51,232 nucleotides of DNA from Nemertoderma westbladi (lineage: Eukaryota; Animalia; Xenacoelomorpha), in assembly GCA_032718475.1 (NCBI GenBank), contig JAUCBJ010007269.1, forward strand, positions 1-51,232, read 5' to 3'. The notes beneath the pieces are model-generated. The model made no database searches, had not been told where the DNA came from, and saw only the letters and a program-made list of their open reading frames with translations. Made by a program: the position numbers and the translations under genes. Shown here in pieces: positions 10,066-44,739 of this stretch; the stretch's first letter is position 1; each line of letters begins with the position of its first letter.

Positions 10066-11265
10066 TGTTCGCGCTTTTGAAGACCTTTAGCAGTTTAACC
10101 TGCCAAAATTTATATGTCTTTTAGTTAATTAAAACACCTTTAGCATACGACAATATTTTATGCTAATAAACAAAACATTACCCGAAGTCAGCCCATGCGC
10201 GATCATTCACCCGATGGATCTACACCCGGGAGGCTGAATTCGGCTGCTTAAATTTTATTATTGCAGTGTAAGGTTGCAGTGTAAACTTACTGTATTATTC
10301 GATTGATCGTTATTAATTAATTTCTGACAGATATTATTGGCTTTCGGGAAATATTAACAGTTCCTTTAGGACGTGGCGCTCTATCTATTTAAACAGGGCT
10401 AGGACTTATACCAAACGCAACGATACTGCTTATGATTAAAGTATAAGGCGCATTCTTTAGGAAATGCTTTGTTACCAATCACAATCATGCACACTATTCT
10501 GCCGACCGTCAGTAAATTTGATCACACATAAAGAGAGCAACAATTGACTCATGTAGGGTCTGCTAAATAACATTAGATTCAATACACACCACATTAATAT
10601 AAATCGCAATTGTTATATATAGCCCGTCTCTCTAACCTGTAGTGTATCAAGAAAATTGGGAATTTTGGGTGATTTATCCGTATTCTCCAAAGAGCAATAT
10701 TTCCATCAACAAATAGATACAATTAATAACTGACGGTAAATAACAGTACAAACAATATGATTAATAGTGAGTTAATTAGATCAGATAAGATTGATTGATT
10801 AGTTGATTAGATAACAGTTTATACTTTCGATAATTTAAGCAGTTTTACTAGAGTTCTTCCCAAAAAGCCGGTGTTATGGCGAAAATGGGAACACAACAAC
10901 AGAATCATATAAAATCATATGACTACTAGCTATACGAGGATACCAACTACCCTTATTCCACAAAGCTCCCGTTCAACACAGAGGATGAGCAGTGAGATAG
11001 GAAATTCAGTTCAGTAGCTCTGGGATAGGTCGAAATCAACGCCCACTCAAATTCTATTGGCCGATACGGACAGCAGGGCTTAGGCAACCTCCCTAGGCTG
11101 GTTGGCCGATTAAACTGAGCCCAGATACCTCCGTACAGCACATCAGCCAATAAGCTGGTAGCTTGCACTATTTTACCTATAGCTCCCTTTTAGAGTATTC
11201 TAGCGACCGGGGGGGAACTGGCCAGCAAAGGCAAACGTATCAGTTATCCCACAAAAGCTTTTACA
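10066..11265 (-). repeat. 3' LTR of element A (1200 bp)
   Basis: On the minus strand it starts TGTAAAAGCTTTT and ends AAAGCGCGAACA, the same termini as the LTRs of element B. The 3' half aligns with the element B LTR (e.g. AGCGCCACGTCCTAAAGGAACTGTTAATATT). AATAAA at about 10254-10259. Confidence 0.9.
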
Positions 11266-11343: not shown

Positions 11344-13119
11344 TTAGTCTTTCTTGCGCGGACGGCGTTTACGCAGTTTTTTAAAGCTAGCAAGAGTCCT
11401 TTTCTCTTTGGGGCGAGCCACTTTACGAGGAGGGCTATAACTCCTGGGTGAAGGGTGCAATATGATTGCATCAGAAGGTATGGGATTACGATCGGTATAT
11501 CCGCCGGTCGAAGTACCGGGTTGATTGACATCAACGTCCGGGGAGAGGGGTCTAACGGCTTTGAGAGCTCGTTTCAAGACAGCCGCTCTTACGGGTCCTG
11601 TACGAGTGGTCTGCACGAGGGCCGTGGGTGGACCATAGGTAGTTAGAAACTTCCTTGGTTTAATGGTTCTTTCCAACTCGCGTTCGCGGGCTCGGTACTC
11701 GTAAGGCCGTCGATATACTTCTTGTAACTCAGGGTGTGAGTTGACGAATAAGTCTCCATAGGCAGGGTCTTGACGGATAAAGTTTATTAAGTTGTAAGAA
11801 TGGATGTCACTCGGATTAATGCTCCTGAGAAATTTGCGTACATATTTGGTTGAAATACATTCTCCAACGCGCTTCAGTAGTTCATAACTTGATAGGCGTG
11901 ATTTTTGTTCGACGGAGGCAAACAAATAAGGATGGAACGCATAAACTCCTTCGTAAGCGCGTCCAGGGTAATAGCGATGGCGTGAATCACAATGTAAATC
12001 AGCGTTCGCTTCCCAAGCTCTGATATAACGTAGTACAATCATTTCATCTACGCTCTCTAAATCATGATTAAAGGGACAATCAAAGCTGGCGTGTCCTTTT
12101 AATTGACAATGATGGCATTGAGTCATAAATTGGGGGCAGACAGCAAAAATGTGCAAATTATTAAGCCGACAATATGCACAATAGATTTCCATCGACGGTT
12201 GCTCGTGGAAATAGGAACAGAGATCGTTGGTGTCCATAGACGTAATATGGTCTCTCGATGCGCACAGCCGACAACGTTGTCGAGAAACATAATTGGCGTG
12301 GCGATAATCATACGCAGTAAGACACTGTGGACCTTGATACCATTCCAATATATAGTCGCTATCGCTACTCCGAGACGTGGGGGGCTGAATCTCTTCAGAT
12401 TCTAAACATATGGGTTCGTCTTCCCCTTGTATAGTTGAGGTAGGCATGGCCGTCTCCTCAAGTGGACCTATCGTCTGAATTTCCACGACAGAATAACCTG
12501 TGGGGATCCGAGGTCTTTGGATAACCGAGGAGTGCAGGTTTATTATACAAATGTCTTTGAAAATAGCGAATCCAGCGCTATCTAACTTCTCCGCAGCCGA
12601 GTCTCTTAAGCTGAGCTTGGTCAAAGCGCGGTCTTTGAATTGGCTATCCACGTTGCGAAACGGGGTTAAAAACCGTCGGAAACATTCAAAGCGGATGAAT
12701 TTATTATGTTCATCTAGCTTAGCGAGTTTGGTCCCAAGCATTAATGGATGGGCGCGTATAGTGCGACTGCACACATCGGCTAGCCAACCGGAAAGTGCGG
12801 CGTTTTCGAAGATCGTGTAGATAGCTAAGGAGGGACGGAGTGGAACACTCATGAAGCTATACACGGCGCCAGGTGCGGTCAACGGTCCGTCAAAGTATAA
12901 TCGAGAATAATGGTCTCCGTATACTTGTTGATAGTTGATGGGATTTCCGACCTTGAAATTCCACCCGTATTCCTGAAAGGCAAGATGTCCGATGGAAGTT
13001 TGTTGCACCTTTGTAATGTTGCTAGACGCATTAGCATACATGGTGCGAAAGAAACCTCGGCCTTCTGCCCAGGGAACAATCAGCTGAGTATCCACGAAAG
13101 GGTATGGAGTGTTCTCCAT
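11344..13119 (-). CDS. Accessory ORF3 of element A, 591 aa; three CCHC-like zinc knuckles and a basic C-terminal NLS-like tail
   Basis: Long uninterrupted ORF with CRLCASRDH(x9)C, CAYCRLNNLHIFAVC and CHHCQLKGHASFDC (canonical CX2CX4HX4C). C-terminus SPRSYSPPRK...KKLRKRRPRKKD. No signal peptide or TM segment. The C-terminal ~50 aa are conserved in element B (44504-44661). Confidence 0.85.
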   Translation of the reverse strand: MENTPYPFVDTQLIVPWAEGRGFFRTMYANASSNITKVQQTSIGHLAFQEYGWNFKVGNPINYQQVYGDHYSRLYFDGPLTAPGAVYSFMSVPLRPSLAIYTIFENAALSGWLADVCSRTIRAHPLMLGTKLAKLDEHNKFIRFECFRRFLTPFRNVDSQFKDRALTKLSLRDSAAEKLDSAGFAIFKDICIINLHSSVIQRPRIPTGYSVVEIQTIGPLEETAMPTSTIQGEDEPICLESEEIQPPTSRSSDSDYILEWYQGPQCLTAYDYRHANYVSRQRCRLCASRDHITSMDTNDLCSYFHEQPSMEIYCAYCRLNNLHIFAVCPQFMTQCHHCQLKGHASFDCPFNHDLESVDEMIVLRYIRAWEANADLHCDSRHRYYPGRAYEGVYAFHPYLFASVEQKSRLSSYELLKRVGECISTKYVRKFLRSINPSDIHSYNLINFIRQDPAYGDLFVNSHPELQEVYRRPYEYRARERELERTIKPRKFLTTYGPPTALVQTTRTGPVRAAVLKRALKAVRPLSPDVDVNQPGTSTGGYTDRNPIPSDAIILHPSPRSYSPPRKVARPKEKRTLASFKKLRKRRPRKKD

Positions 13120-13823: not shown

Positions 13824-14453
13824 TCAACTCATGTCTCTTCTCCAGTGGTTCCCTTCTATTAGTTCAAAGCTATCCGAGACAACAGATAGTGGACGATCTG
13901 CGGTAAGATACATCATGGTGAAATAGAGTCGTTTGAGTTCTACCATGGGATCGTGATGTATACCTTGAGGATATCGAGTCTCTAGGTTCTGTTGACTGGC
14001 AATATTGAGATAGGTTTCTCTCAAAAATTCCAAGTAGTCGTTGAAGTTGATACGCTTATCGGGTTCTTCAACGTTTTCTCTGTCGAGTAGGTTGCGAATA
14101 GAGTTCTCGTGTTCTATTCTCGGTTTATCATTACGATTCCGCTGGGCATGATATTTAAATAAAACCATTTCCCTTTCGGTGTCTACATCATCAGTATCAT
14201 GTAAATCGGTAGGATGGCCGGTAGTTAAGAAGTCCATATACGTACCATTACGATTCGTATAGCGAGCGGTGAATTTTCTATAGTCCGATTCACGCGTAAG
14301 TTGTTCCTGGGACATCGGCGGTTCGATATAACGACCATCGTCCTCCGTAATAGTTGGATCGGCTTCACCGCGTATCAAGCTATCCACAAACGCTTGTAAA
14401 GGTAGAGTATATCGCTCTCTAATACCAAAGTCATCTTCTATCAATTCCGTCAT
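13824..14453 (-). CDS. Accessory ORF2 of element A, 209 aa acidic soluble protein of unknown function
   Basis: Open ORF. The homologue in element B (from 43331) shows many third-codon-position differences (e.g. CCG/CCA, CAG/CAA, GAA/GAG, CTT/CTC in RYIEPPMSQEQL), indicating past purifying selection on the protein. Confidence 0.8.
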   Translation of the reverse strand: MTELIEDDFGIRERYTLPLQAFVDSLIRGEADPTITEDDGRYIEPPMSQEQLTRESDYRKFTARYTNRNGTYMDFLTTGHPTDLHDTDDVDTEREMVLFKYHAQRNRNDKPRIEHENSIRNLLDRENVEEPDKRINFNDYLEFLRETYLNIASQQNLETRYPQGIHHDPMVELKRLYFTMMYLTADRPLSVVSDSFELIEGNHWRRDMS

Positions 14454-14496: not shown

Positions 14497-14639
14497 TAGG
14501 CAAGCGGGCGTCGCTGCCTACTAGGCTTTGCCCCCGGACAGTGGGTTTCTCAGTGCCGATGTACCGCTGTCGCAGTGTTTACGCCAACATGTAGCAACAG
14601 CACGACAACGATAACTGGCACAAGTCCCACCACTGTCCG
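14497..14639 (-). other. Predicted long RNA stem-loop plus short hairpin just upstream of ORF2 (element A)
   Basis: Closing stem CGGACAGTGG/CCACTGTCCG (14535-14544 with 14630-14639), inner stems GTGCC/GGCAC and CGTTGTCG/CGACAGCG, then hairpin AGGCAGCG...CGCTTGCCT. The same fold, with compensatory changes, is at 43141-43285. Confidence 0.7.
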
Positions 14640-15264
14640 TCCCAAAGGCTTGAATCCACTTGAGGTTATCTCGGTAGAGTTAGGGCTACTTTACAATTGC
14701 GATTAGCTACTGTAAACACACTTTAGTAGTAACATTCACCTATAAACGCACAAATTCCATACAATCATTACTTACTGCACACATGCATGCCATTTGTCCG
14801 TTAGTCAGTGTCTTCCAGAATGTCACGTTATTACTATGTATCCTTGGATACTAATAATGCGCTATGTATACTCTTATGCTACGCAATGGGGCAAGCTTTT
14901 ATTGTTCCTTTAACTTGCTTCTAATTCTAGCGTGGGTGTTGCCATGGTGACATTATGGAAAACTAGCGGTAGAATTAGGGTAATTCTCATGCATACAGAT
15001 CTGGGATGTTATTTAATAGTAATTCTTTAATTGTCAATATCCTCTTTATGCATGATTTTATAAATTTTATCGGCTATTGACTATATATTGGAGATTCTCG
15101 CACTCTAGTACACTCAATATGAATCTCCGCTCCCATGATCTATTAATTACTGGAATTTTGGGAATGTTATAAATTGCACAAAATGACAATTTATGAAATT
15201 CATTTGAATATGAATTTAAATTTATTCCCGTGAATTTTATTATTTGATGTTAAATTGACACAAA

Positions 15265-15556
15265 TTTTATTCCAGAGCATGTCTGGGAACTCAGGATCCT
15301 TAATTCTATAAAATCGTCCTTTTAAGAATATCGGTAAATACTGCGATATTTTAATTGACTAGAAATTTTAAAGGATCGGAATTTTACAGATTTTAATAAA
15401 TATTAAATTAATATTTAGGATGGGCACCGATTTATTCCAGAACTTGTCTGGGGACGTTAACCAATGATTCTAGAATTTGTCTTTCAAGTATATCGGTGGG
15501 TGCCACGATATCTTAATCGACTAGAATTACAGATGGTCAAAAAGTTTAACAGATTT
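15265..15556 (-). repeat. Two diverged ~125-bp direct repeats with hairpin potential in the 3' non-coding region of element A
   Basis: Each has the form AATCTGT..TTCTAGTC.ATTAA.ATATCG-N10-CGATAT.CTT.AA..GAC...TAGAAT...CCCAGACA.G.TCTGGAATAAA. Counterparts at about 42197-42322 and 42376-42505. Confidence 0.7.
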
Positions 15557-16073
15557 ATTTGCGATTTACGCTACTGTTAGAGGGACATCACGCTACTATA
15601 TGTATTATTTGTTATAAGGTAGAAGAGCAATATCGCACGAAGCAATGTCAGTGTGAAGAGGCAAGTCGTTTCCAAGGTCTACCCAGAGCTTGGTTTAGCC
15701 GAGACACGAGGATCTGAACTTTGCATTCCTAATACTCTGCCTACCAATAATACTTAAATATAGTAGTGGCTTTATTGTACTTTAAGAAGTACGGACATTT
15801 CATCTTACTGTAGTCACGTATTTATAATATGATACGGACAGTAAGGGAAGAGAAAATAATTATTTCTCGCCATCGCACTAAATATATATTATAGTAATTA
15901 TGTACGTAATAAACACTAATATATTGCACTAATCTACTAAATAATCCCTAAAATAACATTCTACTAAATAAAAATTGAATAAAAACGATTATAATAAAGT
16001 ACATAATAACATTTACATATAAAATGCAATAAAAACAGATAAATAATATAGACATACACCCACTCCAGACGTA

Positions 16074-19000
16074 CTACGTTGAAGAGCCCCTAGATGTTTG
16101 AGGTATTAGGGAGGTGGTCGTGGGAAGGGTTTCTTGCCTTCCATAGTTTCCAGAGAGTTCTCTGTCTCTTTCCAGTAAACATAAACGACCAACTGGGCGA
16201 TTGAGTTGTTGCGTCTCAAAGATTATGCCAGGCTTCTTGAAGTTACGCCGCATAACGATGAGTTCTACTGAACGCACTAAACCATCCTCCGAGATATGAG
16301 TCTCGATGATACGACCTGTCTGCCACCGTTTACGTGGGAGGTCTTGATCTACAATAAGTACCATATCTCCGGCGCTGACGTTTTCCTGCTGCGCAAACCA
16401 CTTAGTTCGAAGTTGTAGCGTGGGCAGGTTATGTCTCTCGAAATGGTCAGCGAAACGACGGGATAGCAACTGCATAAGTTGCCAAGTTCGACGGCAGTAT
16501 TCGTCTCCGTCGACAATCTCCGATCGTGGGAGCATGGCTACCGGTTTCTTCAGTAGGAAGTGCGCAGGTGTCAGCGCTTCCAGGGAATCGGGACTCGATG
16601 AGACTGGCATAAGCGGTCTCTCGTTGAGATAGGCAGCTATTTCCTCCATTAACGTCCGCAAAAGTTCGTCGGTGAGATACGCACGGCACGGCACTATAAA
16701 GTGAAATGCGGTCTTAACACTTCGAATTAATCTCTCCCAACTTCCTCCCCACCAAGGGGCGTCGGCGGCGTTGAAGGTCCAGCTAGACGCTGTTATCCTT
16801 AGCTGGTCATCCACCTGTCTTTGGTTCCAGTCCTTTACGTAAGCTTGTATTTCGTTGTTGGCACCAATGAAGTTCGTTCCCTTGTCCGATCTCATGGTAT
16901 TACTCGTACCGAAGCGAGCGATCTGTCGTCGTAAACTTAAGACGAAACTGTTGGTAGATAGATCGTTCACCATATCGAGATGGATGGCTCTGCAAGTCAT
17001 GCACACGAAGATGACACACCATCTCTTGACTATAGTCCTCGCACGATATACTTCAATAGGGCCAAATAAATCTACACCAGTATTAGTAAAAGGTGGTTCA
17101 TAGAAGCTTACTCGTTCCCTAGGTAATTCTGCCTCTCGCTGTGTTAAAGGCCTACTGAATGCTTTCCTACAGGGTATGCAGTTCCTAAGAACTTGGTTCA
17201 GAGCCCTACGGGGTTTATCAAAATAATAGCGAGTTCGAATTTCGCTAAGAACTCGTTCTCTTCCAGCATGATAAAGCTTACTGTGAACATCTACAATCAT
17301 CTTGATTTGTACTTCAAGATTTCTAATGAGTATGGGGAATTTAGTGTCAAAGGATAAGGGTGCATTGGTTAACCTTCCTCCAACACGTATTAATCCATCT
17401 ATCATTGTGCTAGAGAATCGATCCCTTAAGCGCATCTGCGGATTTCTCAACAACAGGAAATACTTTTCGGAATCCTCATAGCATTGCAGGAGTCTCAGTA
17501 TCTGTTTATTAGTCTCTTCATGCTCCTGGTGACTAATTTTCTCCTTTAGAAAACTGTCAGACACTTTGTATTTAGGTAAGTTTTTAATAACATGAACTTG
17601 CGCAGATGTCAATGGAGCGTTATCACTAGTGGTCTTCGCCCTGGAGTATTGATGATGAAAGCATCTCTTTAAATATGTGACGGCTTTACAGAGCCGATTC
17701 CAGGAACTGTAGTGATGCATCGCTCTCTGCAGCAGGGGTGAGATTCCTTGCGAGACGTCTGGTATTCCAGATTTCCAATCTCTATCTCGAATTTCCGCAA
17801 CAGATTTATTTATAGCGAGGGATTGTGGATCTAAACCATCGTTTCCGGAAACATGTAATACAGATAGATCGATAGTCGGTTTAAATAACTTCGATTTACT
17901 CGCCCGGGTTTTAGGTTTAACGGTCTCCGCTCCCTTGGCTTGTCTAATTTCCGCCGTAGTAAGGTGAGGAGGCCATTCGTCCTCTTCCTTGCTCAGGAAG
18001 TCGGGTCCACCCAACCAATCTGGAGTATCTATCAGTTCCTGTGGAGTTGCTCCCCTGGAGGCGATATCGGCTGGATTAATCGTACCAGGGCAATGTCTCC
18101 ATTGATCTATCTTTGTGCGACTAAGAATAATAGCTACCCTATTAGTAACAAAAACGCTGAACTGACAGACCTCATTGGTTAGATACTCCAACACGAGTAA
18201 AGCGTCGGTCCAATAAACCGTTTTCTCCAGTGGGTAATCGATTTGTTCCGTTACGTTCCGGCCGATGGCTGTAGCGTATAAAGCCGCTTTTAACTCCGCT
18301 CGAGGAACCTTTAACTTGTTGTTAATCAGTGCCTTAGAGGTAACCAAGGCGACTTTGATCCCATCCGGAGTTTCGACTCGCAGATATGCTACTATACCTA
18401 TTCCCATGTCGCTGGCGTCTCCAAACACATGGAGTTGATAGGAATACGTCGGAAGAACATGTCCAAAATATGCACGGGAAATTATAAAGTTCTCGATGGC
18501 AGGTAGAGAATCTTCCCATTTCATCCATTTCTTCAACAGTTCTCCCTTAAGCGGATCATCCCACGAGTGGTTTTCAAGCCACATCTGTTGTACTAAACTC
18601 CGAGCAATCAATATAACTGGGCTAATAAATCCCAATGGGTCGAAATAAGTGCTCAGGATACTTAAACAAATCCGTTTGGTCCGGACTGGATTATCTCGCT
18701 GTTTTAACTGAAAAAACAGGATGTCTCTTTCAGTGTCCCACTTCAAGCCTAGCGTCTTGGTTTCAGGAAGATCGTCTTTTATTAAGTCTAGGTCTTTCGC
18801 TCCGCGATCCTCTACCGGTATGGCTTCCAGAAACTCACGGGAGTTACTAGTGAATTTCGTCAGTCGAAATCCCCCTCTTTTCAAACACTCTACCGTTCCT
18901 TTCGCGACAGCTATGGCTTCTTCTACTGATGGAAGGGACCTTAAATTGTCGTCCATGTATATATTGCGTTTTATGTTGTCTATCACTTCTTTGGAGAAGG

Positions 19001-22000
19001 AGTCTCGGTTGTCATTCGCAGTGGTTCGCACCACGGAGCAGGCGTTGGAAGGGCTAGATATGATCCCAAAAGCCTGGATGGTCATCCAGTACTCCACCGG
19101 TTTCTGGTTGAGGTCTCCTTCAGGCCACCACAGAAATCTCAGGCTGTCTCTATCTCTCTCCAGCGCCTTGACTTGTAAGAACATTCCTTCGATATCGGAA
19201 GCGAACGCGATGGAATATTGTCTTATTCTCAAAAGTATTCCCAACAAAGATTGGAGTAAATTGGGTCCTGGTAACAACTCGGAATTAAGGGATTGGCCCA
19301 TATATAGAGCAGAGCCATCGAATACGACTCGTACTTCATGGGGTTTACCGGGTTTGGGAACGTAATGATGTGTTAGATAATAAGTTCTTTCAGTTATTGG
19401 AGTTCCTTCCGGTACTTGCTCCGCATATCCCTTTGTGATAAATTTCTTCAACTGAGTTTGGTACATTTCCTTAGCTGAAGCGTTTGCCGTAAGACGTCGA
19501 TGTAATTGATTGATTCTTTTCTCAGCCAAGGGTCTGTTATTTATAAATCTGGGTTCACGTTTTCGGAAGGGTAGTCCGATTTCATATCGACCTTGATCTT
19601 TTAAAAAACGTGTGGTTGTTTCCTGGATTTGCTTGGCTCTTTCTTCTTCTATCGACAGGGCTTTGTTGTATGAATTGGGTTCTACTAATTCTTGGGTAAA
19701 GAATCGTACGGCTAGTTCGTCCCGAGTTCTAGCGTTGTAGCGCTCTACCTCGTCATTAAGTTCGTCATTATAAATAATGGATTCCGTTGGGCGAATCAGT
19801 TGACATAGGTTCGTTTGGTTTTTCCAAGTTTGATTCTCTGTAAGTAGGTCAATTGTGTTCTCTTCTTCGAAGAGTTGGTAGATGTCGTCATTATCTGAGG
19901 AGTATGGTGTTCCCTCAGTTAGTTCGTCCACCTCACTGCTTTCCACTTCCCCATCGTTTACTTGATATATTTGTTCGTGTGGCATTCTCTCTTCGAGAGT
20001 TCTACGGGAAGGGCCAGTAAAGTACCAACCTACTCTAGTTCTTACCGCATAAGTTTGCAGTGGTTGTGGTTGAGCAGGCCGTTTCTCTAATGTTTCGAGC
20101 GCCTCGTGCGCGTTTTGGCCGATAAGTATTTGCACTCCAGGATAATCTGTCTGGAATCGAGGTATCTTAAGATGTTGGACGCTCTCATCTTCGTCCCAAT
20201 TATAAAGGTCTGCTTGAGTAGTAGCAAAGTTCTTTATAGCCACCATTTTTACTGACCTTATACCTTGTGTTCCTAACTTATCCTGGGGGGTGGACAACAC
20301 ACCTACATAGTAATCTGCCGTTAGGGTAGATTTCCAAACCTGCATAATTCCTGACATATTCAATTTAGTCCGGAACTTGGGTTGTCCAGCAAAGATATCT
20401 TCGGCTAGTTCTTGATCGATGAATGTTCCTGTGCTGCCGGAGTCCAGGAGGGCGTTCACTATGTAGCTTTTGTCAATACCGTGAACTCTTACCTGAACTA
20501 CAGGAAATTCTCTGATTCCTACGTTGGAAGCTGGAGCTTTCCAAGATGGTTGTTTGGCGAAAGTAGTTTGGGGAAACTCATCGTTGATGTCCTTTTCGTA
20601 AGTAAGTGCTCGATACACTGCGGTATTGATTAGATAACAGGATTCGTTGGCGTCGGAGAATTCGTCAGTATAGAATCCTTCCATCTCAGACTCCTGATCA
20701 GTGTCATTTACGTCACTAAATTGGACATGTAGTTCGGGCTCACTTACCTGACTCTGTTTGTCTCGTTCGAACTCACTGTGTAACAAGATGTGATGTTTCG
20801 CGCCACACTTTGCACACTTTATGTCTGAGTAACAGGTTCGCCGTTGGTGTCCTGGTCTGAGGCAATTATAGCATAACCGCTTGTCCCACACAACTGTACG
20901 TCTATCTACAAGGGATTTCTTTAGAAATTCAGCACACGCACTCAAACGGTGTGTCCCGTCGCACAGCGCACAGTTAGGTTTTATGTTACTCACCTTACCT
21001 TGGGTAACTTGATGCACTCTCGTTTTTTCATCGGGTTTTCTTCGGTGCATTCTGTTAGGAGACTGAGGAGGGGTCTTGGCAACCTGTTCTCTCCTATCGT
21101 TGTTTCGAGCCTTATATTTACTTACATCTTTTGAGGTTTTGTCAACATAGTAAGATCGGTCTGTGTCTTTCCCGCTGTCCTCTTCTTGGGAAGCCTGGCT
21201 TTCGCCGTCGTCAGTGTAACACACCGGTGTTACTCTTCTCCTAGAAGTGGGTTTCTCACTTACCTTATTTTCCGATGTTTCCTCTCTGGACTGATTGATG
21301 AGTTGTAGTTTGACTTCACCATCTAAGAAAGACATGAGATCAGCCATGGTAGGACTTCGTCGTTGTTGTTCATTCATGTACAACACTTTCTTGTCCCAGC
21401 GTGTACATACTCCACCCTTTGGTAAAGTAGAGACTACGGCTCCAATAACCATGGAACTCTGATATTCATGCGACTTACCTAACCAGTCCAGTTGTCTACA
21501 GATCTCTTGAATTTCATCGGAAAACTCTATAATCCCACTACTAAGGAAGTGTCGGGGGGCTACTAATTTTGCATACAAATACTTAGCTATGTTATCCTTG
21601 TTACCATACCTGATGTTTAATGTATCCCAAACTTGTCTTAATCCTTCTGGATGTCCAATAAACTTTAACGCCATTAACTTGGGAGGTCCTTCCAAGCACT
21701 TGATGAGGAATCTAAGTTTCTCTCCGTTAGATAGTACAGAGTTCTGTATGCTATCTTTGTAATATTCGTTGAAAGGTAACCATTTCATCTCATCTCCATT
21801 GAATTTGACGATCTCTCCCACTTTGACCGCTTGGCGGGCTTCTGTTCTAGCCATCTGACGCATAAAGCTTTCTTGGGCCATCGTGTTATTTAATATCGAA
21901 TTATCGGTATACAAATTTCTCGGATCATTATCAGGTCTATAGGGAATATCATTAATAACAGGTCTATAATCACCCTTAATAGGGTTTGCTATAGGAGTTT

Positions 22001-24107
22001 CAACTTCACTAGCAGTATAGATGCGTGCAGGCTCCACACCTTGCGCATGTAATACTTCAGACCTAACAGGTTGACACAATGTTACAGGGGGTATTGGTAT
22101 GCCCTTTTGGATATTGACTAATTTGTCGCGTTCTAGTGCGATACTTTGCTGCACTTCTTGCAACTCCGCTCTACCTTCCCTCACTGTTCCCTTAAGTTGG
22201 TGGACAGTCTCCTGCATCTGTCCTAGCAGGAGATTCATCCCCCGCCGCCCCTCTTCCACCCACTCAACCGCCGAAGCGGGAGTCGCCAACATAGTAGCGG
22301 GCTGACGCGGGACGACGGGAGACAAATTTTTGATTTCTCTCTCTGCTATCTGGACAGGGATATTCTCTTGGACTGCTCCACCGGGTACAGGCAATGTAGT
22401 ACTATGTAAAGGGAATTTAGAGTTAAGCTCTGGAAGTACAGGGGTCTCTAACACAGAAGTGACTTTGGGAACGACAGGCCTAATTATCTCAGGCTCATCA
22501 ACTATTGTAGAGAGTCTTTGGACCTTAATACTTTGGGCTGTAGGTTCTATACTACTCAAGTCTGTGCTAGCTAGCTGTCTTCTAACAGCTGGGGGCAAAT
22601 CAGGCAATTTGCGACGGTAAGATGTTTTTCTACGCCTACTTAGATGAGATCTATTTCCTCCGCCTTCAGGATCGGTAGTCTCGCCTTCCTCCGAGGACGT
22701 GTATCCCTGGCGCTTGGGAGTAGATTTTCTCATCATCTGCATTTGATTAGCAGTAAACTGTTTATTTATGCTATCTTGCGCCTCTTGCAGATTTTCCAAC
22801 TCTAGTTGGATAGTCTCCTCAGACGCTCTCCGTTCTGCTTCTGCCACTGTTGCTTTTCTTTCGGCTTCCGCCGCTTTTCTTTCTGCTTCTGCTTCTGCCG
22901 CTTTTGCTTTTCTTTCGGCTTCTGCTTCTGCCGCTTTTGCTTTTCTTTCGGCTTCTGCTTCTTTTCTTTCTGCTTCTGCTTCCGCCGCCGCTGCTGCTGC
23001 TACCTTCCTTTTCTCTATCCGTTCTTTCTTTACTTGATCTTCTCGGACTCTAGTGAGGCGGAGTTGTTCATCACATTCAGCTTGGTTTGCAGCTAACATT
23101 TCGGCATCGATTGAGTCCAACACAAGCTTGGTTCCTTCACTATTAGGGGAAAGCCCAGACAGCCGTCTCCTCAACTCTTCGTCTCCTAGGAATCGCTGAT
23201 AGTCGGACAAATAAATGTCGATAGCGTCTCTAGTTCGCGGCTTCTCGGCGGTCTCTTTGCTTTCCGCTTGAGAAAGGGTGACATCAGTTGGTTCTTCATA
23301 GGTTGATCTCTCAGCTAGCTGGGATTTCCACTGGGCCGTTTCCTGTACTTTGAGATCTACCCTATGTAACCAAGTTTTGACAGCAACCTGCAGCGACGTG
23401 TCTTGTCTTCTTTTGGAAGTTTCCTCAAAGGCTGAGAGGATTAGTCGTATGCGTAGGGTTCTTTCGCGTATTTGGTATAGCAGCTCTTCCTGCTCTTGAG
23501 GTCCTTGAGGTTGTCGAAACAGTTGTTCTTCCAATCGCTCCAAGGAGCCGAAGAATCCCTGCACATATCCTGATGCCGACCTCTTCCAAACAGCTGGATC
23601 CATTGTATCTTGTGCCACTCCCATCCTGTGTATATCATCCCAAGTAGCCTCGGACAGGTCCAACGGGAGTCCGAGTCCGGGAAAGTTCCATTGTGACTCG
23701 ACAATAGACATTAATTCTTCCCTGGCGTATCCCGCATAATTATCTCGGGTCGCTCGCTTATTCCTCGCCCAGTCGGCTTGATGTTCCTCCACCGCAATGA
23801 ATATAGTAGTTAGCACTGCAGCAGGAAGGGTAAGAAGGGGGTCCGAGTAGACTGTAACAGCCATCTGCCCTCCGCGTTCGGGGGTCAGCTCTACAGTATC
23901 CGAACTGCTAGAGCTATCGGGTCGCTGGGAAGTAGGTTCTTGACCAAGATGTTGCTGCGATGGGACAACTGCCTCTTGGTTCCGTTTGACCTGTGCCCGA
24001 GTGCCTATGATGGACCTATGGTGGATTAGCCTAGGGTCTGATACTACTGGAGGGATGACCTTTTTTGCAGTAGGAGGTGAGCTGAACTCCTTTCTTAATC
24101 GCTCCAC
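16074..24107 (-). CDS. Bel/Pao Gag-Pol polyprotein, 2677 aa (Gag, protease, RT, RNase H, integrase)
   Basis: Three Gag Cys/His motifs (CALCDGTHRLSAC, CYNCLRPGHQRRTC, CAKCGAKHHILLH); protease ALLDSGS; RT SDIEGMFLQV, RFLWW, YMDD; RNase H LHVFGDAS, PRAEL, WTD, NPADIASRG; integrase HHCC plus GVDLFGP, SDKGTNF, WERLIRSVK. True start uncertain (the track uses a GTG; the first ATG is about codon 82). Confidence 0.96.
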   Translation of the reverse strand: MERLRKEFSSPPTAKKVIPPVVSDPRLIHHRSIIGTRAQVKRNQEAVVPSQQHLGQEPTSQRPDSSSSSDTVELTPERGGQMAVTVYSDPLLTLPAAVLTTIFIAVEEHQADWARNKRATRDNYAGYAREELMSIVESQWNFPGLGLPLDLSEATWDDIHRMGVAQDTMDPAVWKRSASGYVQGFFGSLERLEEQLFRQPQGPQEQEELLYQIRERTLRIRLILSAFEETSKRRQDTSLQVAVKTWLHRVDLKVQETAQWKSQLAERSTYEEPTDVTLSQAESKETAEKPRTRDAIDIYLSDYQRFLGDEELRRRLSGLSPNSEGTKLVLDSIDAEMLAANQAECDEQLRLTRVREDQVKKERIEKRKVAAAAAAEAEAERKEAEAERKAKAAEAEAERKAKAAEAEAERKAAEAERKATVAEAERRASEETIQLELENLQEAQDSINKQFTANQMQMMRKSTPKRQGYTSSEEGETTDPEGGGNRSHLSRRRKTSYRRKLPDLPPAVRRQLASTDLSSIEPTAQSIKVQRLSTIVDEPEIIRPVVPKVTSVLETPVLPELNSKFPLHSTTLPVPGGAVQENIPVQIAEREIKNLSPVVPRQPATMLATPASAVEWVEEGRRGMNLLLGQMQETVHQLKGTVREGRAELQEVQQSIALERDKLVNIQKGIPIPPVTLCQPVRSEVLHAQGVEPARIYTASEVETPIANPIKGDYRPVINDIPYRPDNDPRNLYTDNSILNNTMAQESFMRQMARTEARQAVKVGEIVKFNGDEMKWLPFNEYYKDSIQNSVLSNGEKLRFLIKCLEGPPKLMALKFIGHPEGLRQVWDTLNIRYGNKDNIAKYLYAKLVAPRHFLSSGIIEFSDEIQEICRQLDWLGKSHEYQSSMVIGAVVSTLPKGGVCTRWDKKVLYMNEQQRRSPTMADLMSFLDGEVKLQLINQSREETSENKVSEKPTSRRRVTPVCYTDDGESQASQEEDSGKDTDRSYYVDKTSKDVSKYKARNNDRREQVAKTPPQSPNRMHRRKPDEKTRVHQVTQGKVSNIKPNCALCDGTHRLSACAEFLKKSLVDRRTVVWDKRLCYNCLRPGHQRRTCYSDIKCAKCGAKHHILLHSEFERDKQSQVSEPELHVQFSDVNDTDQESEMEGFYTDEFSDANESCYLINTAVYRALTYEKDINDEFPQTTFAKQPSWKAPASNVGIREFPVVQVRVHGIDKSYIVNALLDSGSTGTFIDQELAEDIFAGQPKFRTKLNMSGIMQVWKSTLTADYYVGVLSTPQDKLGTQGIRSVKMVAIKNFATTQADLYNWDEDESVQHLKIPRFQTDYPGVQILIGQNAHEALETLEKRPAQPQPLQTYAVRTRVGWYFTGPSRRTLEERMPHEQIYQVNDGEVESSEVDELTEGTPYSSDNDDIYQLFEEENTIDLLTENQTWKNQTNLCQLIRPTESIIYNDELNDEVERYNARTRDELAVRFFTQELVEPNSYNKALSIEEERAKQIQETTTRFLKDQGRYEIGLPFRKREPRFINNRPLAEKRINQLHRRLTANASAKEMYQTQLKKFITKGYAEQVPEGTPITERTYYLTHHYVPKPGKPHEVRVVFDGSALYMGQSLNSELLPGPNLLQSLLGILLRIRQYSIAFASDIEGMFLQVKALERDRDSLRFLWWPEGDLNQKPVEYWMTIQAFGIISSPSNACSVVRTTANDNRDSFSKEVIDNIKRNIYMDDNLRSLPSVEEAIAVAKGTVECLKRGGFRLTKFTSNSREFLEAIPVEDRGAKDLDLIKDDLPETKTLGLKWDTERDILFFQLKQRDNPVRTKRICLSILSTYFDPLGFISPVILIARSLVQQMWLENHSWDDPLKGELLKKWMKWEDSLPAIENFIISRAYFGHVLPTYSYQLHVFGDASDMGIGIVAYLRVETPDGIKVALVTSKALINNKLKVPRAELKAALYATAIGRNVTEQIDYPLEKTVYWTDALLVLEYLTNEVCQFSVFVTNRVAIILSRTKIDQWRHCPGTINPADIASRGATPQELIDTPDWLGGPDFLSKEEDEWPPHLTTAEIRQAKGAETVKPKTRASKSKLFKPTIDLSVLHVSGNDGLDPQSLAINKSVAEIRDRDWKSGIPDVSQGISPLLQRAMHHYSSWNRLCKAVTYLKRCFHHQYSRAKTTSDNAPLTSAQVHVIKNLPKYKVSDSFLKEKISHQEHEETNKQILRLLQCYEDSEKYFLLLRNPQMRLRDRFSSTMIDGLIRVGGRLTNAPLSFDTKFPILIRNLEVQIKMIVDVHSKLYHAGRERVLSEIRTRYYFDKPRRALNQVLRNCIPCRKAFSRPLTQREAELPRERVSFYEPPFTNTGVDLFGPIEVYRARTIVKRWCVIFVCMTCRAIHLDMVNDLSTNSFVLSLRRQIARFGTSNTMRSDKGTNFIGANNEIQAYVKDWNQRQVDDQLRITASSWTFNAADAPWWGGSWERLIRSVKTAFHFIVPCRAYLTDELLRTLMEEIAAYLNERPLMPVSSSPDSLEALTPAHFLLKKPVAMLPRSEIVDGDEYCRRTWQLMQLLSRRFADHFERHNLPTLQLRTKWFAQQENVSAGDMVLIVDQDLPRKRWQTGRIIETHISEDGLVRSVELIVMRRNFKKPGIIFETQQLNRPVGRLCLLERDRELSGNYGRQETLPTTTSLIPQTSRGSST

Positions 24108-24114
24108 ACTCCTC

Positions 24115-24437
24115 AGGCATTCCTGTGGGAAACAGAGTGGAAGGGTTTACTGTGGAAGATCACCCATGGTGGTGAACAGGCATTCCTTTAGGAAACAGAG
24201 TGGAAGGGTTTACTGTGGAAGACCACCCATGGTGGTGAACAGGCATTCCTTTAGGAAACATAGTGAAAGGGTTTACTGTGGAAGATCACCCATGGTGGTG
24301 AACAGGCATTCCTTTAGGAAACAGAGTGGAAGGGTTTACTGTGGAAGATCACCCATGGTGGTGAACAGGCATTCCTTTAGGAAACAGAGTGGAAGGGTTT
24401 ACTGTGGAAGATCACCAATGGTGGTGAACAGGCATGC
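24115..24437. repeat. 63-bp tandem repeat (~5 copies) in the leader of element A
   Basis: Unit AGGCATTCCTTTAGGAAACAGAGTGGAAGGGTTTACTGTGGAAGATCACCCATGGTGGTGAAC, near-identical copies. Confidence 0.95.
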
Positions 24438-34242: not shown

Positions 34243-35473
34243 TGTAAAAGCTTTTACTGAATTGTCCGGTTATTTTTCCTTATTTTTCCCGTAAAGTACT
34301 CTGTAGTTGGTTTACCAGGCATAAAAAGGCCGTGTCCTTGCTGTACTGGTGTTTTAGCGGACATAAGAGCTATTTCTTCTGTATTTGTACTTTAGAGGAC
34401 ATAATCCGTAATTCCGTGACGTAAAAGCTCGATACTCTTGAAAACAGTGTCGCTACCATGACGACGGCTAGCAGCTGATATTGCCACGTCCACCTTTCTT
34501 TGTTTCTCTGTTCTCTCGTTGTTCATGTTGACCAATCAGAGCGTTTGTGATCTCTGTGTTGGAGGTATATACAGAAACTCAGTAGTTCAGTGTTATGTTT
34601 TTGTCCAGAGCCTAAGAACCGGCTTTGGCACCTCCGTGTTTTAGTTTTTAGTCTTACACTAGTAGGTTTAATTATAAAGGGCATATATCCTTTAACGCAC
34701 CTACCTGACTCATGGAATCACTGCATACTGATGACTGATGTCTGTATACTGCAGTACTGCATACACTGCATACTGTGTAACATTGTGCATACCTTTATAT
34801 TGTTATACTGCTATTAACCGTCAGTTCTTCATAATATGGTTGATGAATAATTATATTTGGAATAACGATAAACAACCCCGAAACCCAATATTCTTGATAT
34901 ACCGAAGGTAAGAGAGAAGGGTTACAGATAAACGATTGTGACTTATGTTAAAGTGGTTTGAAGTGAATCTAATGTTATTTGATAGACCCTACATGAGTCA
35001 GTCTGTGTTCCTTTTATATGTGACTAAAATCAGTGAAGATTGGCAGATTAGTGTGCAGTATTGTGCAGCATTGTGTATGAGTGAGTCTGTTAAAGAAGCA
35101 ATTCCTAAAGAATGCGCCATATATGTGAATTATAATTAAGCCATATCGTTGTGAGTAGTTTAAGTCATAACTCTGTTTATATAGATAAAGCGCCACGTCC
35201 TAAAGGAACTGTTAATATTACCGAAGGTGAATAATATTGTCAGAGATTATATAATACTGTCAGTCGAATAATACATTAGGCTTACATAGCAATACAAATT
35301 AAACCGTCGAACCCAATCTCCCGGGAATATCCAGCGGGTGAATGGTCGCGCACGGATTGGTTTCGACTAGTGTAGTGAATCAAATACTTGTCATAGACTA
35401 AAAAGCAGATTTATTATCTAGAAGACATTCTAATTTGGCGGGTTAAACTGCCAAAGGTCTGAAAGCGCGAACA
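34243..35473 (+). repeat. 5' LTR of element B
   Basis: TGTAAAAGC...GCGCGAACA. Only two differences from the 3' LTR were seen by eye (CCACGTCCACC vs CCACGTCGACG). CCAAT at about 34532, TATATA at 34566, TCAGT at 34579 and 34587. Confidence 0.97.
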
Positions 35474-35744
35474 TTAAAGGATATTGCTTCTTTATTGCAG
35501 TAAGCAATAAAGTCGAAAGTACCGGTCGACCGGTAACCAGTAGGCCTGACTGCCTGATCATCCGGACCGGTACCTACAGCAGTATTATTCGATTTTGATA
35601 ATTATATACCGGTAGGCCTTAATAATTAATCAGGGAGGGCCCGCCCTGGTTTTTTATTGAGTTTTTACTTATTTCTGTCAAGTTTTATTTATTTGTAGGC
35701 CAGTATTGAACAGAAGGCGTGTAAACCTGATCAGATTGTACAGA

Positions 35745-36312
35745 CAATTTGTAGGCTGAGCTGTTGTCTGATTGCTGTTAAGTCCGAACGAATTGCAGTG
35801 TGTGTAGAGCACTTGTCCGATTAAGTACGGTTAGGAAGTAGGGGCAGCCACGCTGTAAGGTAAACCCCCAACTAAAGAATAAGTCGCACTACTGGGTTAG
35901 AGCGCATACTCCCTAATCATTTCGGAGTCTGCATGTCCTGTATTTTATTTAGGCTTGAGAGTAGTCTGCCATCGTTTAGTCTGTACTTTGTTTGTGTAAG
36001 TCTGTACGGGTAGCGTATAATTTTATTTAGATAATTTGTAGGCTGGATAGTTGTCTGGCTGTTATTAAGTCTGAGCGGATTGCCGCGTGTGTAGATCATC
36101 TGTCCGATTAAGTACGATTAGGCAGTAGGGGCAGCAACGCTGTAAGGTAAACCCCCAACTAAAGAATAAGTCGCACTACTGGGTTAGAGCGCATACTCCC
36201 TAATCATTTCGGAGTCTGCATATACCGTAGTTTGTTTAGGCTTGATAGTAGTCTGTCAGTGTTCGGTCTGTATTTTATTTGAGTAGTTTGTACGCGTAGC
36301 GTAATATTTATT
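35745..36312 (+). repeat. 287-bp tandem duplication in the 5' leader of element B with a nearly invariant core
   Basis: Copies start at about 35751 and 36038. The ~95-nt core GTAGGGGCAGC.ACGCTGTAAGG...CATTTCGGAGTCTGCAT is essentially identical while the flanks are diverged. Confidence 0.9.
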
Positions 36313-37632
36313 ATTCAGAGTTTATGCGATTATTCGCAACATTCATTCCCTAAGTTTGTTCCTACAGTAATTGTGTTTGTTATACATACCGTTATAGTTA
36401 AATTAACCCCGGTACTATACGGGCTGCTCGGCGTAGGTAAAGACTGGTGATTTTGTGCATCGGTCACTCCAGCAGATGCCGTGGTTCTTTTAGCTGTTCA
36501 AGTATATTTAACTACTGATTATTTGTTGTACAAGTACTCGTACCTAATTTAGGGTTTAGTGTACAGTGCTTTCCCGAAGTAATTATTGTAGCCATTATAT
36601 TTGTGTTGTAAAGTGGTTGATAGGCACATTCGATTAGCTCTATTAACTTCTAGGTAGGAACACTCCGTGATACATAACGTAGAACCTATAGCGATACGGC
36701 TATAGGTCGTCAGGCGGTGGTATTTTCCTATCTAGACAACGCAGTGTATTTGCTACTACTTATTATTTCAAATACCGTAGTACCCTGTCCGCTGTAATAA
36801 TCAGTTTTCTAACCCTTTGTTAGGCTGGTTTGTAGACTTCTTGTAAAATTACCCTAAAAATTCGTATTTTGTGTTTTTTTGTAAATTTTTGTGTTTATTT
36901 AGAGATTGTAATCTCACCCGAATTGTACGTAATTTGTAGTATTAAGTAACTTAGGTAAATTAGAATTATTTGTTTTAGTGTCTCATAAGTAACACTTCAC
37001 TGAAAGCGCACCGCTTTGTGTAGTGATTACTCCCCAGAAATAATAACATTTATTTCAAACATTGGCAAAACCCATTAAAACGGGTATATATAAATTATAA
37101 ATCAAATCTAACGATTTATAAATAGTAGGCCTACCATATAACAATTAGGTCTCAATATCAGTTGGATTACTGCTCAAATAACGGTAATAAAGTAAGTAAA
37201 GTAACAAAGTAACCCTAAAGTAACAGAAATTCAATTATTTGAAATAATTGATATACCGGTATTTACGATAGGCCTATTATCTTTATTTCTATAAATCTAG
37301 GCTGAAATTGTACCGGTACTTGTAATTAATTCTATTTCAGAATTATATATCCTACAAACTGTAAGCTGTATACCGGTATTCCGATAGGCCTATTATATAT
37401 TTATATATATTTGTGCTAAAATTATACCGGTGTTCTGTGATAAACCTGGTCTGTAATAATACTTATATAGTTATATATACTATAAGCATACCGGTATTCT
37501 AATATATTATATATATCACGCTACACTGAGTAGCAGTACCGATAATTAATTACTAGGCTATCAGTTAATACTGAGTTACTAGACTTGCTCAGACTGTAAT
37601 ACAGCAGTAGACATTCAACTGTACACACAAAC

Positions 37633-40600
37633 ATGTCTGACGCAAAGCAGAACCTGTCAGACAGTCTACTAGATACAACGGAGAGTGAAGCGACAGCAGA
37701 GAAACCGCATAAGAGGGATGCCATTGATATCTATCTGTCAGACTATCAGCGTTTTGTGGGAGATGAAGAGTTGAGGAGAAGACTAGAGGGACTTAGCCCT
37801 AATAGCGAAGGAGCCAAACTTGTGTTAGATGCGATTGATGTGGATAGGTTAGCGGCGAACCAAGCTAAATTCGATGAACAACTCCGCATCGCTAGAGAAA
37901 GGGAAGAACAAGTAAAGAAAAAACGCATAGAAGACAGAAAGAAAGCAGCAGTGGTAGCTGCAGAAGCAGAAAGAAAGGCGGCAGCGGCCAAGGCAAAAGC
38001 AGCAGAGGCAGCGGCAGAGGCAAAAGCGGCAGAGGCAGAGGCAGAGGCAGCGGCAGAGGCAAAAGTGGCAGAAGCAGAACGGAAAGCGGCTGAAGAAACC
38101 ACCCAATTAGAATTGGAAAACATTCAGGAGAATCAAGACTGCATAAATAAACAGTTAACAGCTAGTAATATGCAGATGATGAATCGATCTACTCCTAAAC
38201 GACAAGGTTATACATCATCCGAGGAAGGCGATACCACCGACACTGAAGGCGGAGTAAATCGATCCCGCTTAAGCAGACGTAAAAGAACATTCCACCGACC
38301 GAAATTGCCTGATTTGCCTCCAGCTGTTAGAAGGCAACTAAATAACAACAACTTAGAGAGTACAGAACCCACAGACCAAATAATTACAATAGAAAGACTC
38401 CCTACTATAGTAGATGAGCCTGAAATAATTAGGCCTGTTCTTGAAATCACCCCTTCGGTGATAGACATACCTGTGCTCCCTGAAACTACCTCTAAATTCC
38501 CTCTGCATAGCACTAAGCTACCTGTGCCCCGCAGAACTGCCCAGGAGACAGTTCAGGTCCTGGACCCCGAGCGAAATATTCACAATTTGTCGCCCGTTGT
38601 CCCTCGTCCGCCCGCTACGACGTTGGCGGATCCCGTTTCGGCGGTTGATTGGGTAGACGAGAGACGGCGGGGGATGGATATCCTGCTCGGGCAGATGCAG
38701 GAGACTGTCCAGCAATTCAAGGGCACAGTAAGGGAAAGTAGGCTAGAGTTGCAAGAAGTGCAACAAAGTATCGCGCTTGAACGCGATAAATTAGTAAACA
38801 CCCAAAAGGGTATACCACCACCCTCTGTAACAATGTGTCAACCCGTTAGGTCTGAAGTATCTCATGCGCAAGGTGTGGAGCCTACACGCATATATACTGC
38901 TAGCGAAGTAGAAACTCCTATAGTGAACCCTATTAAGGGTAATTATAGACCTGTTGATAATGACATTCCCTATAGACCTGATCATAATCCGAGAAATTTA
39001 TATACCGATAACTCGATATTAAATAACACGATGGCCCAAGAAAGTTTTACGCGTCAAATGGCTAGAACCGAAGCCCGGCAAGCGGTGAAGGTGGGAGAGA
39101 TAGTCAAATTCAATGGAGATGAGATGAAATGGTTACCTTTTAATGAATATTACAAAGATAACATACAGAACTCTGTACTATCTAATGGAGAAAAACTTAG
39201 ATACCTCATCGAGTGCTTGGAAGGATCTCCCAAGTTAATGGCGTTAAAGTTTATTGGACATCCAGACGGATTAAGACAAGTTTGGGACACGCTAAACATC
39301 AGGTATGGTAATAGGACTAACATAGCTAGGTATTTATATGCGAAATTAATGGCGCCCCGAAAGTTTCTTAGCAGCGGGATTATAGAGTTTTCCGATGAGA
39401 TTCAGGAGATCTGTAGACAACTAGATTGGTTAGGTAAGTCTCATGAATACCAGAATTCTATGGTTGTAGGATCCTTAGCATCTTCTTTGCCCAAGGGTGG
39501 AGTAGGTACACGCTGGGACAAGAAGGTGTTATATATGATGGAACAACAACAACGAGACCCTACCATGGCTGATCTCATGTCATTCTTGGATGGAGAAGTG
39601 AAATTGCAACTCCTAAGGCAGTCCAGAGAGAAGACATTGGAAAACAAGGTAAGTGAGAAACCCGTTTCTAGGAGAAGGGTAATACCAGTATGTTATACCG
39701 ACGACGGTGAAAGCCAAACTTCTCAAGGAGAGGACAGCGGGAAAGACACTGACAGATCTTATGTCAATAAAATGCCTAAAGATCAGGTAAGTAAATCCAA
39801 GTCTCGACCCAATGACAGAAGGGAACCGGTACAAAAAACCCCTCCTACGTCTCCTAAAGGAATTCAGGTGAGAAAGCCCGAGGAAAGAACAAGTGTGCAC
39901 CACATAGCACAGGTTAAAGTAAGTAACATCAAGCCGAAATGTGTGCTGTGCGACGGGCCCCACCGTTTAAATGCGTGTGATAAATTCCTGAGGAAATCAC
40001 TCGAGGATAGACGTGAAGTCATGTGGGATAAGCGGTTGTGTTATAATTGCCTCAGACGAGGACACCAACGGCGAACCTGTAACTCCGACGCAAGGTGTGC
40101 AAAGTGCGGCGCAAAACATCATATCTTGTTGCACACGGAATTCGAACGAAACAGCCCGAGTCAGGTAAGTGAGTCCGAACTACATGTCCAATTCAGTGAT
40201 GTGAACGACACTGATCAATCTGAGATGGAAGGATTCTATACGGACGAGTTCTCCGACCAAAACGAATCCTGTTACCTAATAAACACCACCGCAGTGTATC
40301 GAGCACTCGTGTATGAGAAAGACACAGACAGCGACCTTACCTTAACTACTTCCGATCAACAACCATCTTGGAAAGCGCCAACTTCCAATATAGGAATCCG
40401 AGAATTTCCTGTAGTCCAGTTACGGGTCCACGGACCTCAGAAGAGCTATATAGTGAACGCCCTCCTGGACTCCGGTAGCACAGGAACATTCATCGATAGG
40501 GAACTAGCCGAAGTCATCTTTGCTGGACAACCCAAGTTCCGAACCAAGCTAAACATGTCAGGGATCATGCAAGTTTGGAATTCTACTGTAGCTGCCGACT

Positions 40601-43330: not shown

Positions 43331-43750
43331 ATGATGGAGTTGATAGCAGATGTTCTTGGTATCGGGGAGCGATATACTCTACTTTTGCAAGCGTTTGTTG
43401 ATAGCTTAATACGCGGCGACGTTAGTCCAACTGCTGCGGAGGACGATGGTCGTTATATCGAACCGCCAATGTCCCAAGAGCAGCTCGCGCGCGAGTTGGA
43501 CTATAGAAAATTCGCTGCTCGATACGCAGCGTAATGGTACGTATGTGGTCTTCTTAACTACTGGTCATCCTATCGATTTACACAATACGGACTATGTCGA
43601 CTATATATCCTGCCCAGCGGAGTCGGAACCATAAACTGAAATTCGAATGCGAAAATTCTATTCGAAATCGACTCGAAAGAAAAGACACTAAAGAAACAAA
43701 TGGACGCGGTAACTCCAACGTATATTTGGAATTCTTGATAGAAGCATTGT
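43331..43750 (+). pseudogene. Frameshifted remnant of accessory ORF2 in element B
   Basis: MMELIADVLGIGERYTLLLQAFVDSLIRG...RYIEPPMSQEQL aligns with ORF2. A frameshift near 43530 moves RNGTYVVFLTTGHP to another frame, with further decay beyond. Confidence 0.85.
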
Positions 43751-44661: not shown

Positions 44662-44739
44662 CTGTTTAGAGTATCTTTATGTTTTAGAAACTGTGATTTT
44701 TATATTTTATAGACTGAAAATCCCATTTTCTGGGAGCGG

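Follow-up and report, generated by a model that had tools for sequence, protein, structure and literature searches.

Retroviral dimer-initiation hairpins such as HIV-1 SL1 carry a self-complementary tip and lie beside the primer-binding site (PBS) in the 5′ leader. The dimerization of retroviral RNA follows a route from a kissing complex to an extended duplex (PMC6844567, in part; here and below, 'in part' marks sources cited from a portion of their text). In the LTR retrotransposon Ty1, two different hairpins, SL1a and SL3a, one of them in gag, carry complementary 7-nt tips; both are nested in a pseudoknot and confined to the first 326 nt, and a reciprocal intermolecular kiss between them has been proposed to start dimerization and packaging (PMC5454406, in part). 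This kiss was not seen by SHAPE in dimers, and the model is contested (PMC6844567, in part). Even in Ty1 and Ty3 the packaging and dimer signals are ill-defined, and the dimer signals of Ty1 lie near the 5′ end (PMC4974528, in part).

Bel/Pao elements (Belpaoviridae; for example Sinbad, Suzu, Tas and Cer7) have a single gag-pol ORF with the order PR-RT-RH-IN, a Pao peptidase, DUF1759, DUF5641, an LLDSG protease motif and a 5-bp target-site duplication, and their known extra ORFs are env genes (PMC554778, in part). In the literature covered, with most subscription papers outside its scope, no dimer, packaging or export RNA element is described for any Bel/Pao element, and the available parts of PMC12440569 and 10.1101/2025.03.14.642691 hold nothing on Bel/Pao RNA elements.

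The locus described here is a window of 51,232 nucleotides, the whole stretch of DNA that was analysed, and holds two opposite-facing copies of one Bel/Pao LTR retrotransposon, A on the minus and B on the plus strand. Like Ty1, each copy has two different hairpins with complementary tips, one of them in gag. Unlike in Ty1, the tips are kilobases apart on stems of 36–44 pairs, both hairpins have an identical tip helix, the host element is Bel/Pao, and the pairing role is predicted from sequence. The hairpin outside gag, in the spacer 3′ of pol, also resembles HIV-1 SL1 in its self-complementary tip and in identical stems that would permit strand exchange; unlike SL1, it does not sit beside a PBS in the 5′ leader, its partner loop is complementary but non-identical, and the loop of A is lower in G+C. 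Our preferred reading, a Ty1-like pair of kissing hairpins that links element RNA for dimerization or packaging, is an argument by analogy to which we give a probability of roughly 0.4.

Two divergent copies of a Bel/Pao retrotransposon

A match to an O-GlcNAc transferase (OGT) exon at 30181–30035 identifies the DNA of the window as animal. Read along the minus strand, A consists of gag-pol, a non-coding spacer, the spacer hairpin, ORF2, ORF3 and the 3′ LTR (Table 1); a 5′ LTR of A was not found within the window. Membership of Bel/Pao follows from matches to Pao peptidase A17 (E 5.8e-36), DUF1759 (8.2e-12) and DUF5641 (3.6e-18) in one gag-pol ORF, and the domain order, the LLDSG motif and the 5-bp target-site duplication are likewise those of described members. 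Unlike these, the element has a longer Gag, and its closest outside relatives are 40–44% identical in RT-RH (top matches among 120 listed of 636).

Paired LTRs of the TG...CA form with a short target-site duplication were found for B only. Because its LTRs are near-identical, with two mismatches in 1231 sites, and are flanked by a 5-bp duplication, B must have inserted recently. An internal deletion has removed most of its pol, RT and integrase included, its ORF3 is mostly replaced, and small indels near 43520 and 43600 break its ORF2. A primer-binding site of the TGG type was not found directly 3′ of the LTR of B. One LTR window of B (45408–45517, plus strand) reached z −6.7 in a coarse folding scan; its counterpart in the 5′ LTR, covered by a window with a different offset, reached −3.6. 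Between A and B, dS is 0.63 in gag-pol (1340 codons) and 0.59 in ORF2 (65 codons), and 106 of 364 fourfold sites differ; judged by this synonymous divergence (dS about 0.6), the two copies are old relatives.

The two orphan 3′ ORFs have no transmembrane segment and differ in this from the env genes of Tas and Cer7. Searches for homologs found none of ORF2 among proteins of 113–363 aa and none of ORF3 among proteins of 325–1035 aa or in 1.84 billion representatives, and tblastn with both gave no match in 67 distant Bel/Pao loci. The CCHC-like motifs of ORF3 lie at 283–349, its AlphaFold model is uninformative as to fold (pLDDT 34), and its last 40–50 codons, the basic tail, survive in B at 91% DNA identity over 255 bp.

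Table 1. Positions of the retrotransposon copies, their hairpins and the tip motifs in the window.
Feature	Positions	Strand	Remarks
gag-pol ORF of A	16074..24146	-	2690 codons stop to stop; PF03564, PF05380, PF17921, PF18701
Spacer of A, pol to hairpin	14640..16073	-	non-coding, AT-rich; 87% identity with B
ORF2 of A	13824..14453	-	209 aa, acidic, no Pfam family
ORF3 of A	11344..13119	-	591 aa, three CCHC-like motifs, basic C-terminus
3′ LTR of A	10066..11265	-	
Element B	34243..45970	+	LTRs 34243-35473 and 44740-45970
Spacer hairpin A	14535..14639	-	44-pair irregular stem, 3x3 purine-rich internal loop, bulged U, apical GCUA/UGGC helix
Spacer hairpin B	43141..43248	+	
Small downstream hairpin A	14497..14520	-	two substitutions relative to B, in loop and bulge
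Small downstream hairpin B	43264..43285	+	
Gag hairpin A	22233..22327	-	long stem, three-way junction, motif hairpin and UUCG hairpin; ends at in-frame AUG
Gag hairpin B	38585..38679	+	homologous place to that in A
Tip motif, spacer A	14582..14595	-	GCUAC-N2-GUUGGCG
Tip motif, gag A	22284..22298	-	GCUAC-N3-GUUGGCG
Tip motif, spacer B	43185..43199	+	
Tip motif, gag B	38614..38628	+	

A conserved hairpin between pol and ORF2

In both copies the spacer hairpin sits between pol and the orphan ORF2. The preliminary description of this DNA had proposed a covarying stem-loop at this place, and all the stems that it quoted, those of the spacer hairpin and of the small hairpin downstream, are present in A and in B. 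The sense strand folds at −51.9 kcal/mol (z −5.3) in A and at −66.9 kcal/mol (z −8.3) in B, as well as which none of 200 shuffles folded in either copy; the opposite strand folds worse, with z of −2.1 and −3.1 in 149–150-nt windows. A coarse scan (step 55, 14 shuffles), whose windows cut the hairpin, gave it only z −3.0.

When the 44 homologous pairs are compared between A and B, 31 are identical, four differ at both positions, six differ at one position with pairing retained, and three are broken in one copy. Under a null of 17 randomly placed substitutions, as many pairs were kept in at most 6 of 10,000 trials (p ≤ 6e-4), and at least four double changes arose with p 0.0009–0.0034 over six settings. 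G-U pairs stand against A-C oppositions at 7:1 in A and 8:0 in B, which favours the sense strand. The double changes, the G-U excess and the random-substitution null together bear out the earlier claim of covariation with pairing kept on the sense strand. Shuffling of the 3′ letters in a covariation program, a control with little power on two rows, was not significant (59 of 500 reach the observed values over 41 pairs), and sliding the partners against each other lowers the pairing in the stem from 98% to 30–49%, for a structure derived from the same two sequences. It is important to point out that the consensus structure comes from A and B themselves, and that these are two copies only.

The fold z values, the conservation of pairs and the rank of the hairpin among the two strongest folds of each element (see below) also back the earlier description of a functional cis RNA element, and the spacer hairpin is very probably a functional RNA structure. 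We conclude that it is selected as a single-stranded nucleic acid of the sense strand, most probably RNA.

A competitor at the DNA level is a neutral inverted repeat whose arms stay complementary through template switching or conversion, with RNA editing as a possible further influence. Short tandem units in the arms of B and the share of A/G differences (10 of 23 in the hairpin vs 68 of 242 in the flanks) point in that direction; the preponderance of G-U over A-C, however, singles out one strand, neither the internal loop nor the bulges have been lost, A/G changes of both directions occur, and the recurrence of the tip in gag would go unexplained, so that this origin is extremely unlikely. 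A microRNA or siRNA precursor is very unlikely. The long G-U-rich stem would suit it, as would the distribution of changes over pairs 22–44, with two in the 5′ arm and six in the 3′ arm, but this asymmetry probably follows from the G/U-rich composition of the 5′ arm. MicroRNA loops drift, and the usual precursor stem has about 35 pairs; here the tip is the very part shared with the gag hairpin, the stem, with 44 pairs, is longer, and the gag hairpin is branched. Both readings fit poorly.

A known family had been proposed as a check, and here the outcome was negative: nine Rfam matches at E ≤ 5 were obtained, and none overlaps either the spacer or the gag hairpin. Several described elements were considered and rejected. 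A SECIS element has a RUGAN/NGAN core, a short stem II and apical AA; RUGA occurs in B only, and the stem above the loop has about 28 pairs. Hammerhead, HDV-like and other small ribozymes were set aside, with CUGANGA in B only and no Rfam ribozyme match. The apical loop of an iron-responsive element is CAGUGH, which was not found here, where the loop letters vary. Polymerase III boxes were looked for and rejected. By eye, the small downstream hairpin has a loop (ACGCY) that could pair with the GGCG on the 3′ flank of the tip motif, also after its C/U change; within one molecule the two would be too distant on a rigid stem.

A sister hairpin in gag and a shared tip

The gag hairpins had escaped the earlier reading. 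Together with the spacer hairpins they are the two strongest sense 110-nt folds of each element: −54.7 and −51.9 kcal/mol in A, with the next at −40.5 (1398 windows), and −60.7 and −54.3 in B, with the next at −45.4 (1162 windows). Among 85 windows of aligned gag the hairpin is the best two-copy fold (−41.5 vs a median of −12.9). All 36 pairs of its consensus form in both copies, with one double and five one-sided changes. When the fold of one copy was transferred to the other with the tip helix forced, 35 of 37 and 36 of 38 pairs were kept (p 0.003); unforced, the figures were 33 of 36 and 36 of 40 (p 0.03–0.04). A shuffle control of the consensus was uninformative (252 of 500), and no depletion of synonymous changes was found over the gag hairpin (5 of 22 vs 256 of 863, p 0.33).

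All four hairpins have the same tip, GCUAC-N2-3-GUUGGCG, with 12 invariant letters. This motif has four matches in the window and none in 100 shuffles. Shared 12-letter words of the kind that arise by chance are plentiful (A has 41, B has 18), but the tip word is the only 5+gap+7 word to occur twice in both elements, and the only one in A for which both sites are strongly folded (−53.0, next −31.2). A word of this type in common with the spacer tip was found in 13 of 17956 control windows for A and in 4 of 17956 for B. At both sites the two-copy consensus folds choose the GCUA/UGGC helix with its C-N2-3-G-U cap unforced; single-sequence folds prefer the motif helix in one of four hairpins, spacer A, with penalties of 0, 1.0, 1.9 and 2.7 kcal/mol, and opening the tip costs 1.2–3.7 kcal/mol. 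A motif-like site with one mismatch at 34039–34053, which has no long stem, was taken as chance.

The two hairpins gave no clear sign of having arisen from a single ancestor by duplication. With the motif left out, similarity of the arms reached the top 1% of control windows in one of eight comparisons and the top 5% in two of eight, and neither the spacer nor the gag covariance model finds the other hairpin above noise (best 13 bits, E 0.24).

Alternatively, the spacer hairpin may control ORF2 expression, by an IRES, by shunting, or by a long-range kiss through which ribosomes or a splice donor from the gag region would reach ORF2. The spacer of A has 25 upstream AUGs before the ORF2 AUG, and no AUG common to both copies lies between the last upstream AUG (14735 in A, 43045 in B) and the start of ORF2. 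The first 65 codons of ORF2 are still open in B and under purifying selection (dN/dS 0.20), and a long-range kiss is compatible with a role in translation. In gag, the AUG with which the hairpin ends is in-frame and kept in both copies, but relatives do not start there: for the 65 with a gag match among the 120 listed, the median projected start is 436 and the 90th percentile 550, vs Met637. The spacer offers other routes to ORF2, in a TATA-like box (15826 in A, 41925 in B) and several shared AG acceptor-like sites, no IRES family was matched in Rfam, and the hairpin of B is near-perfect, with 43 of 44 pairs, next to a truncated ORF2. An IRES would explain neither the shared tip on the gag hairpin nor the complementarity of the tips within each element, and control of ORF2 is, on balance, unlikely.

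That the hairpin still folds in B, where the ORF is dead, had been put forward as a sign of function. ORF2 is indeed broken there and the hairpin kept, but the argument is weak, since the 5′ part of ORF2 is still constrained and the piece of ORF2 further downstream only partly relaxed (dN/dS 0.40). One copy cannot date the gene losses in B.

Complementary loops and a possible kiss

The variable tip letters differ among all four hairpins and match within each element, with GUC and GAC in B and AU and UAU in A. A kiss through the AC-xyz-GU loops is predicted to form seven pairs in B and five in A, and the loop letters would fit such a kiss in both copies (post hoc, n = 2). Predicted energies of the cognate loop duplexes are −8.7 kcal/mol in B and −2.1 in A, compared with −0.9 and −0.6 for the cross-element combinations. 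If the gag loop is held fixed, the actual spacer letters rank first of 64 in B and first of 16 in A; if the spacer loop is held fixed, the gag letters rank first of 64 in B and fifth of 64 in A. One of the changes in the gag loop alters an amino acid, which also counts in favour of the pairing. The cognate kiss of A is weak, and 30% of random loop pairs do as well. The spacer tip is self-complementary in both elements (−4.6 kcal/mol in A, −4.7 in B), and in A this is stronger than the cognate kiss. Cofolding of whole cognate spacer and gag hairpins gave no gain (−1.0 and −0.9) in a program that cannot model kissing loops. Since the pattern was recognized post hoc, in two copies that share ancestry, we put the chance that the spacer and gag tips really pair at about even.

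How such pairing could be used may be pictured as follows. The long stems are predicted to display the tips, and the complementary loops of gag and spacer would kiss across the 7689 nt that separate them in A and the 4557 nt in B. The identical GCUA/UGGC helices would let the kiss convert to a longer duplex by strand exchange; for isolated 13–14-mers this extended duplex is predicted at −15.1 kcal/mol in B and −9.6 in A. If Ty1 and retroviruses are a guide, a pair of reciprocal kisses between two genomic RNAs could start dimerization and lead to packaging, with the Gag nucleocapsid or ORF3 as a possible chaperone, which might act on the run of G that ends each stem on its 3′ side. Kissing between spacer tips, each self-complementary, may contribute to the linkage. 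If the two tips of a single RNA kissed each other, pol would be looped out, and the role might then lie in splicing or translation. That the pairing of the tips serves dimerization or packaging is a tentative proposal, drawn from these analogies.

Two hairpins with complementary apical motifs, one mark of a kissing-loop system, are present, weakly so in A; a location in the 5′ packaging region, another mark, is not found here, where one hairpin lies in mid-gag and the other 3′ of pol. Against the dimer reading it can be held that known dimer signals lie near the 5′ end and not kilobases apart, as in Ty1 (PMC4974528, in part). Element B keeps both hairpins despite the loss of RT, integrase and most of ORF3, and this retention fits a signal that is needed in cis.

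Both hairpins, with their invariant tip helix and its U-G pair, could instead be binding sites for one protein, be it ORF3, ORF2 or a host factor, used in nuclear export of unspliced RNA or in germ-cell transport, as with RRE/Rev, CTE/NXF1, Cer1 CERV or the signal of the I-factor that Egl-BicD recognizes. In that case the C-N2-3-G-U loop would presumably form a pseudo-triloop. CGGGGG lies 39–47 nt 3′ of the motif in all four hairpins, and ORF3, with three CCHC-like motifs, a net charge of +15 and a basic tail, is a putative binding protein. The long bulged stem, the purine-rich internal loop, the two structured elements per transcript and a neighbouring accessory protein that combines a basic tail with Cys/His motifs recall the MPMV CTE, the HIV RRE, Cer1/CERV and the I-factor ILS, as far as these are described in the available parts of the sources. 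The spacer hairpin lies 3′ of pol, which we take to be where CTE-type elements act (on these, PMC8579622, in part), and Cer1 CERV is a precedent for an LTR retrotransposon with a Rev-like export protein (PMC10309623, in part). Egl requires two stem-loops per transcript (PMC13186709, in part), and of the features of Egl-BicD signals, which also include a bent stem and U-A positions, bulges of the 3′ strand and a second hairpin are present.

Unlike in these systems, however, the hairpins here have no sequence or Rfam match, CTE and RRE families included, and tip complementarity is not described as a feature of theirs; protein binding does not explain why the variable loop letters match within each element. 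B has lost most of ORF3 and would need it in trans, and Egl signals, in the part of the source available, lack a shared sequence, unlike these hairpins. Recognition by a protein is somewhat unlikely, though a serious competitor of the kissing reading.

The kissing-hairpin reading can be extended further, to a proposal that we regard as doubtful. A 'complex' Bel/Pao lineage with two accessory genes would link its RNAs via tips 5–8 kb apart, and the two or three variable loop letters would act as a subfamily code for the RNA partner, and hence for the helper that a non-autonomous copy such as B could use. If the tips pair, one of the three main families of LTR retrotransposons would gain a compact RNA signal open to testing, for which nature supplies both matched and mismatched controls, and in which the kissing partners are much farther apart than in Ty1. 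The analysis draws attention, too, to a lineage whose two accessory genes are without detectable homologs. Overall, the spacer structure is solid and the paired-tip model attractive, but the case is built on two sequences.

Distribution in other sequences

Further copies were sought in metagenome contigs, where the spacer motif had no matches, and in viral contigs, where four scans gave no relatives. An alignment scan of metagenomes with gag-pol provided 67 distinct loci, taken from the best 80 of 579 confirmed stretches and 29–42% identical. In the 481,109 bases of these distant Bel/Pao loci the full tip motif had no match, nor did either covariance model at E ≤ 5, and because of this the hairpin-tip feature looks specific to the lineage. 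Of the 40 loci among the 67 that were scanned for folding (step 30), one had a 110-nt window at or below −50 kcal/mol. This window (L013:601–710, −70.9 kcal/mol), without a motif or model match, lies upstream of the gag-pol match of a distant relative.

Other features of the window

Within the non-coding spacer, the stretch 15401–15800 of A is 94–99% identical to about 41950–42350 of B despite a dS of about 0.6. The TATA-like box lies just upstream of it, and the stretch folds no better on the sense strand; it may reflect strong constraint, possibly an internal promoter, or recent exchange between subfamilies. In B, ORF2 and the tail of ORF3 are separated by some 750 bp (43750–44500, plus strand) that have no match elsewhere in the window, and the 2.1-kb leader (35474–37630, plus strand) has an internal 290-bp duplication and no similarity to A. 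At its 5′ end A is replaced (24051–30027) by a 63-bp tandem array, a poly-G run and satellites of 61–62, 21 and 22 bp, and the 21/22-bp arrays flank OGT-like exons. Two related MITE-like elements with long terminal inverted repeats occupy 30909–31886 and 46179–46824, and further MITE-like elements lie at 884–1383 and 48279–49111.
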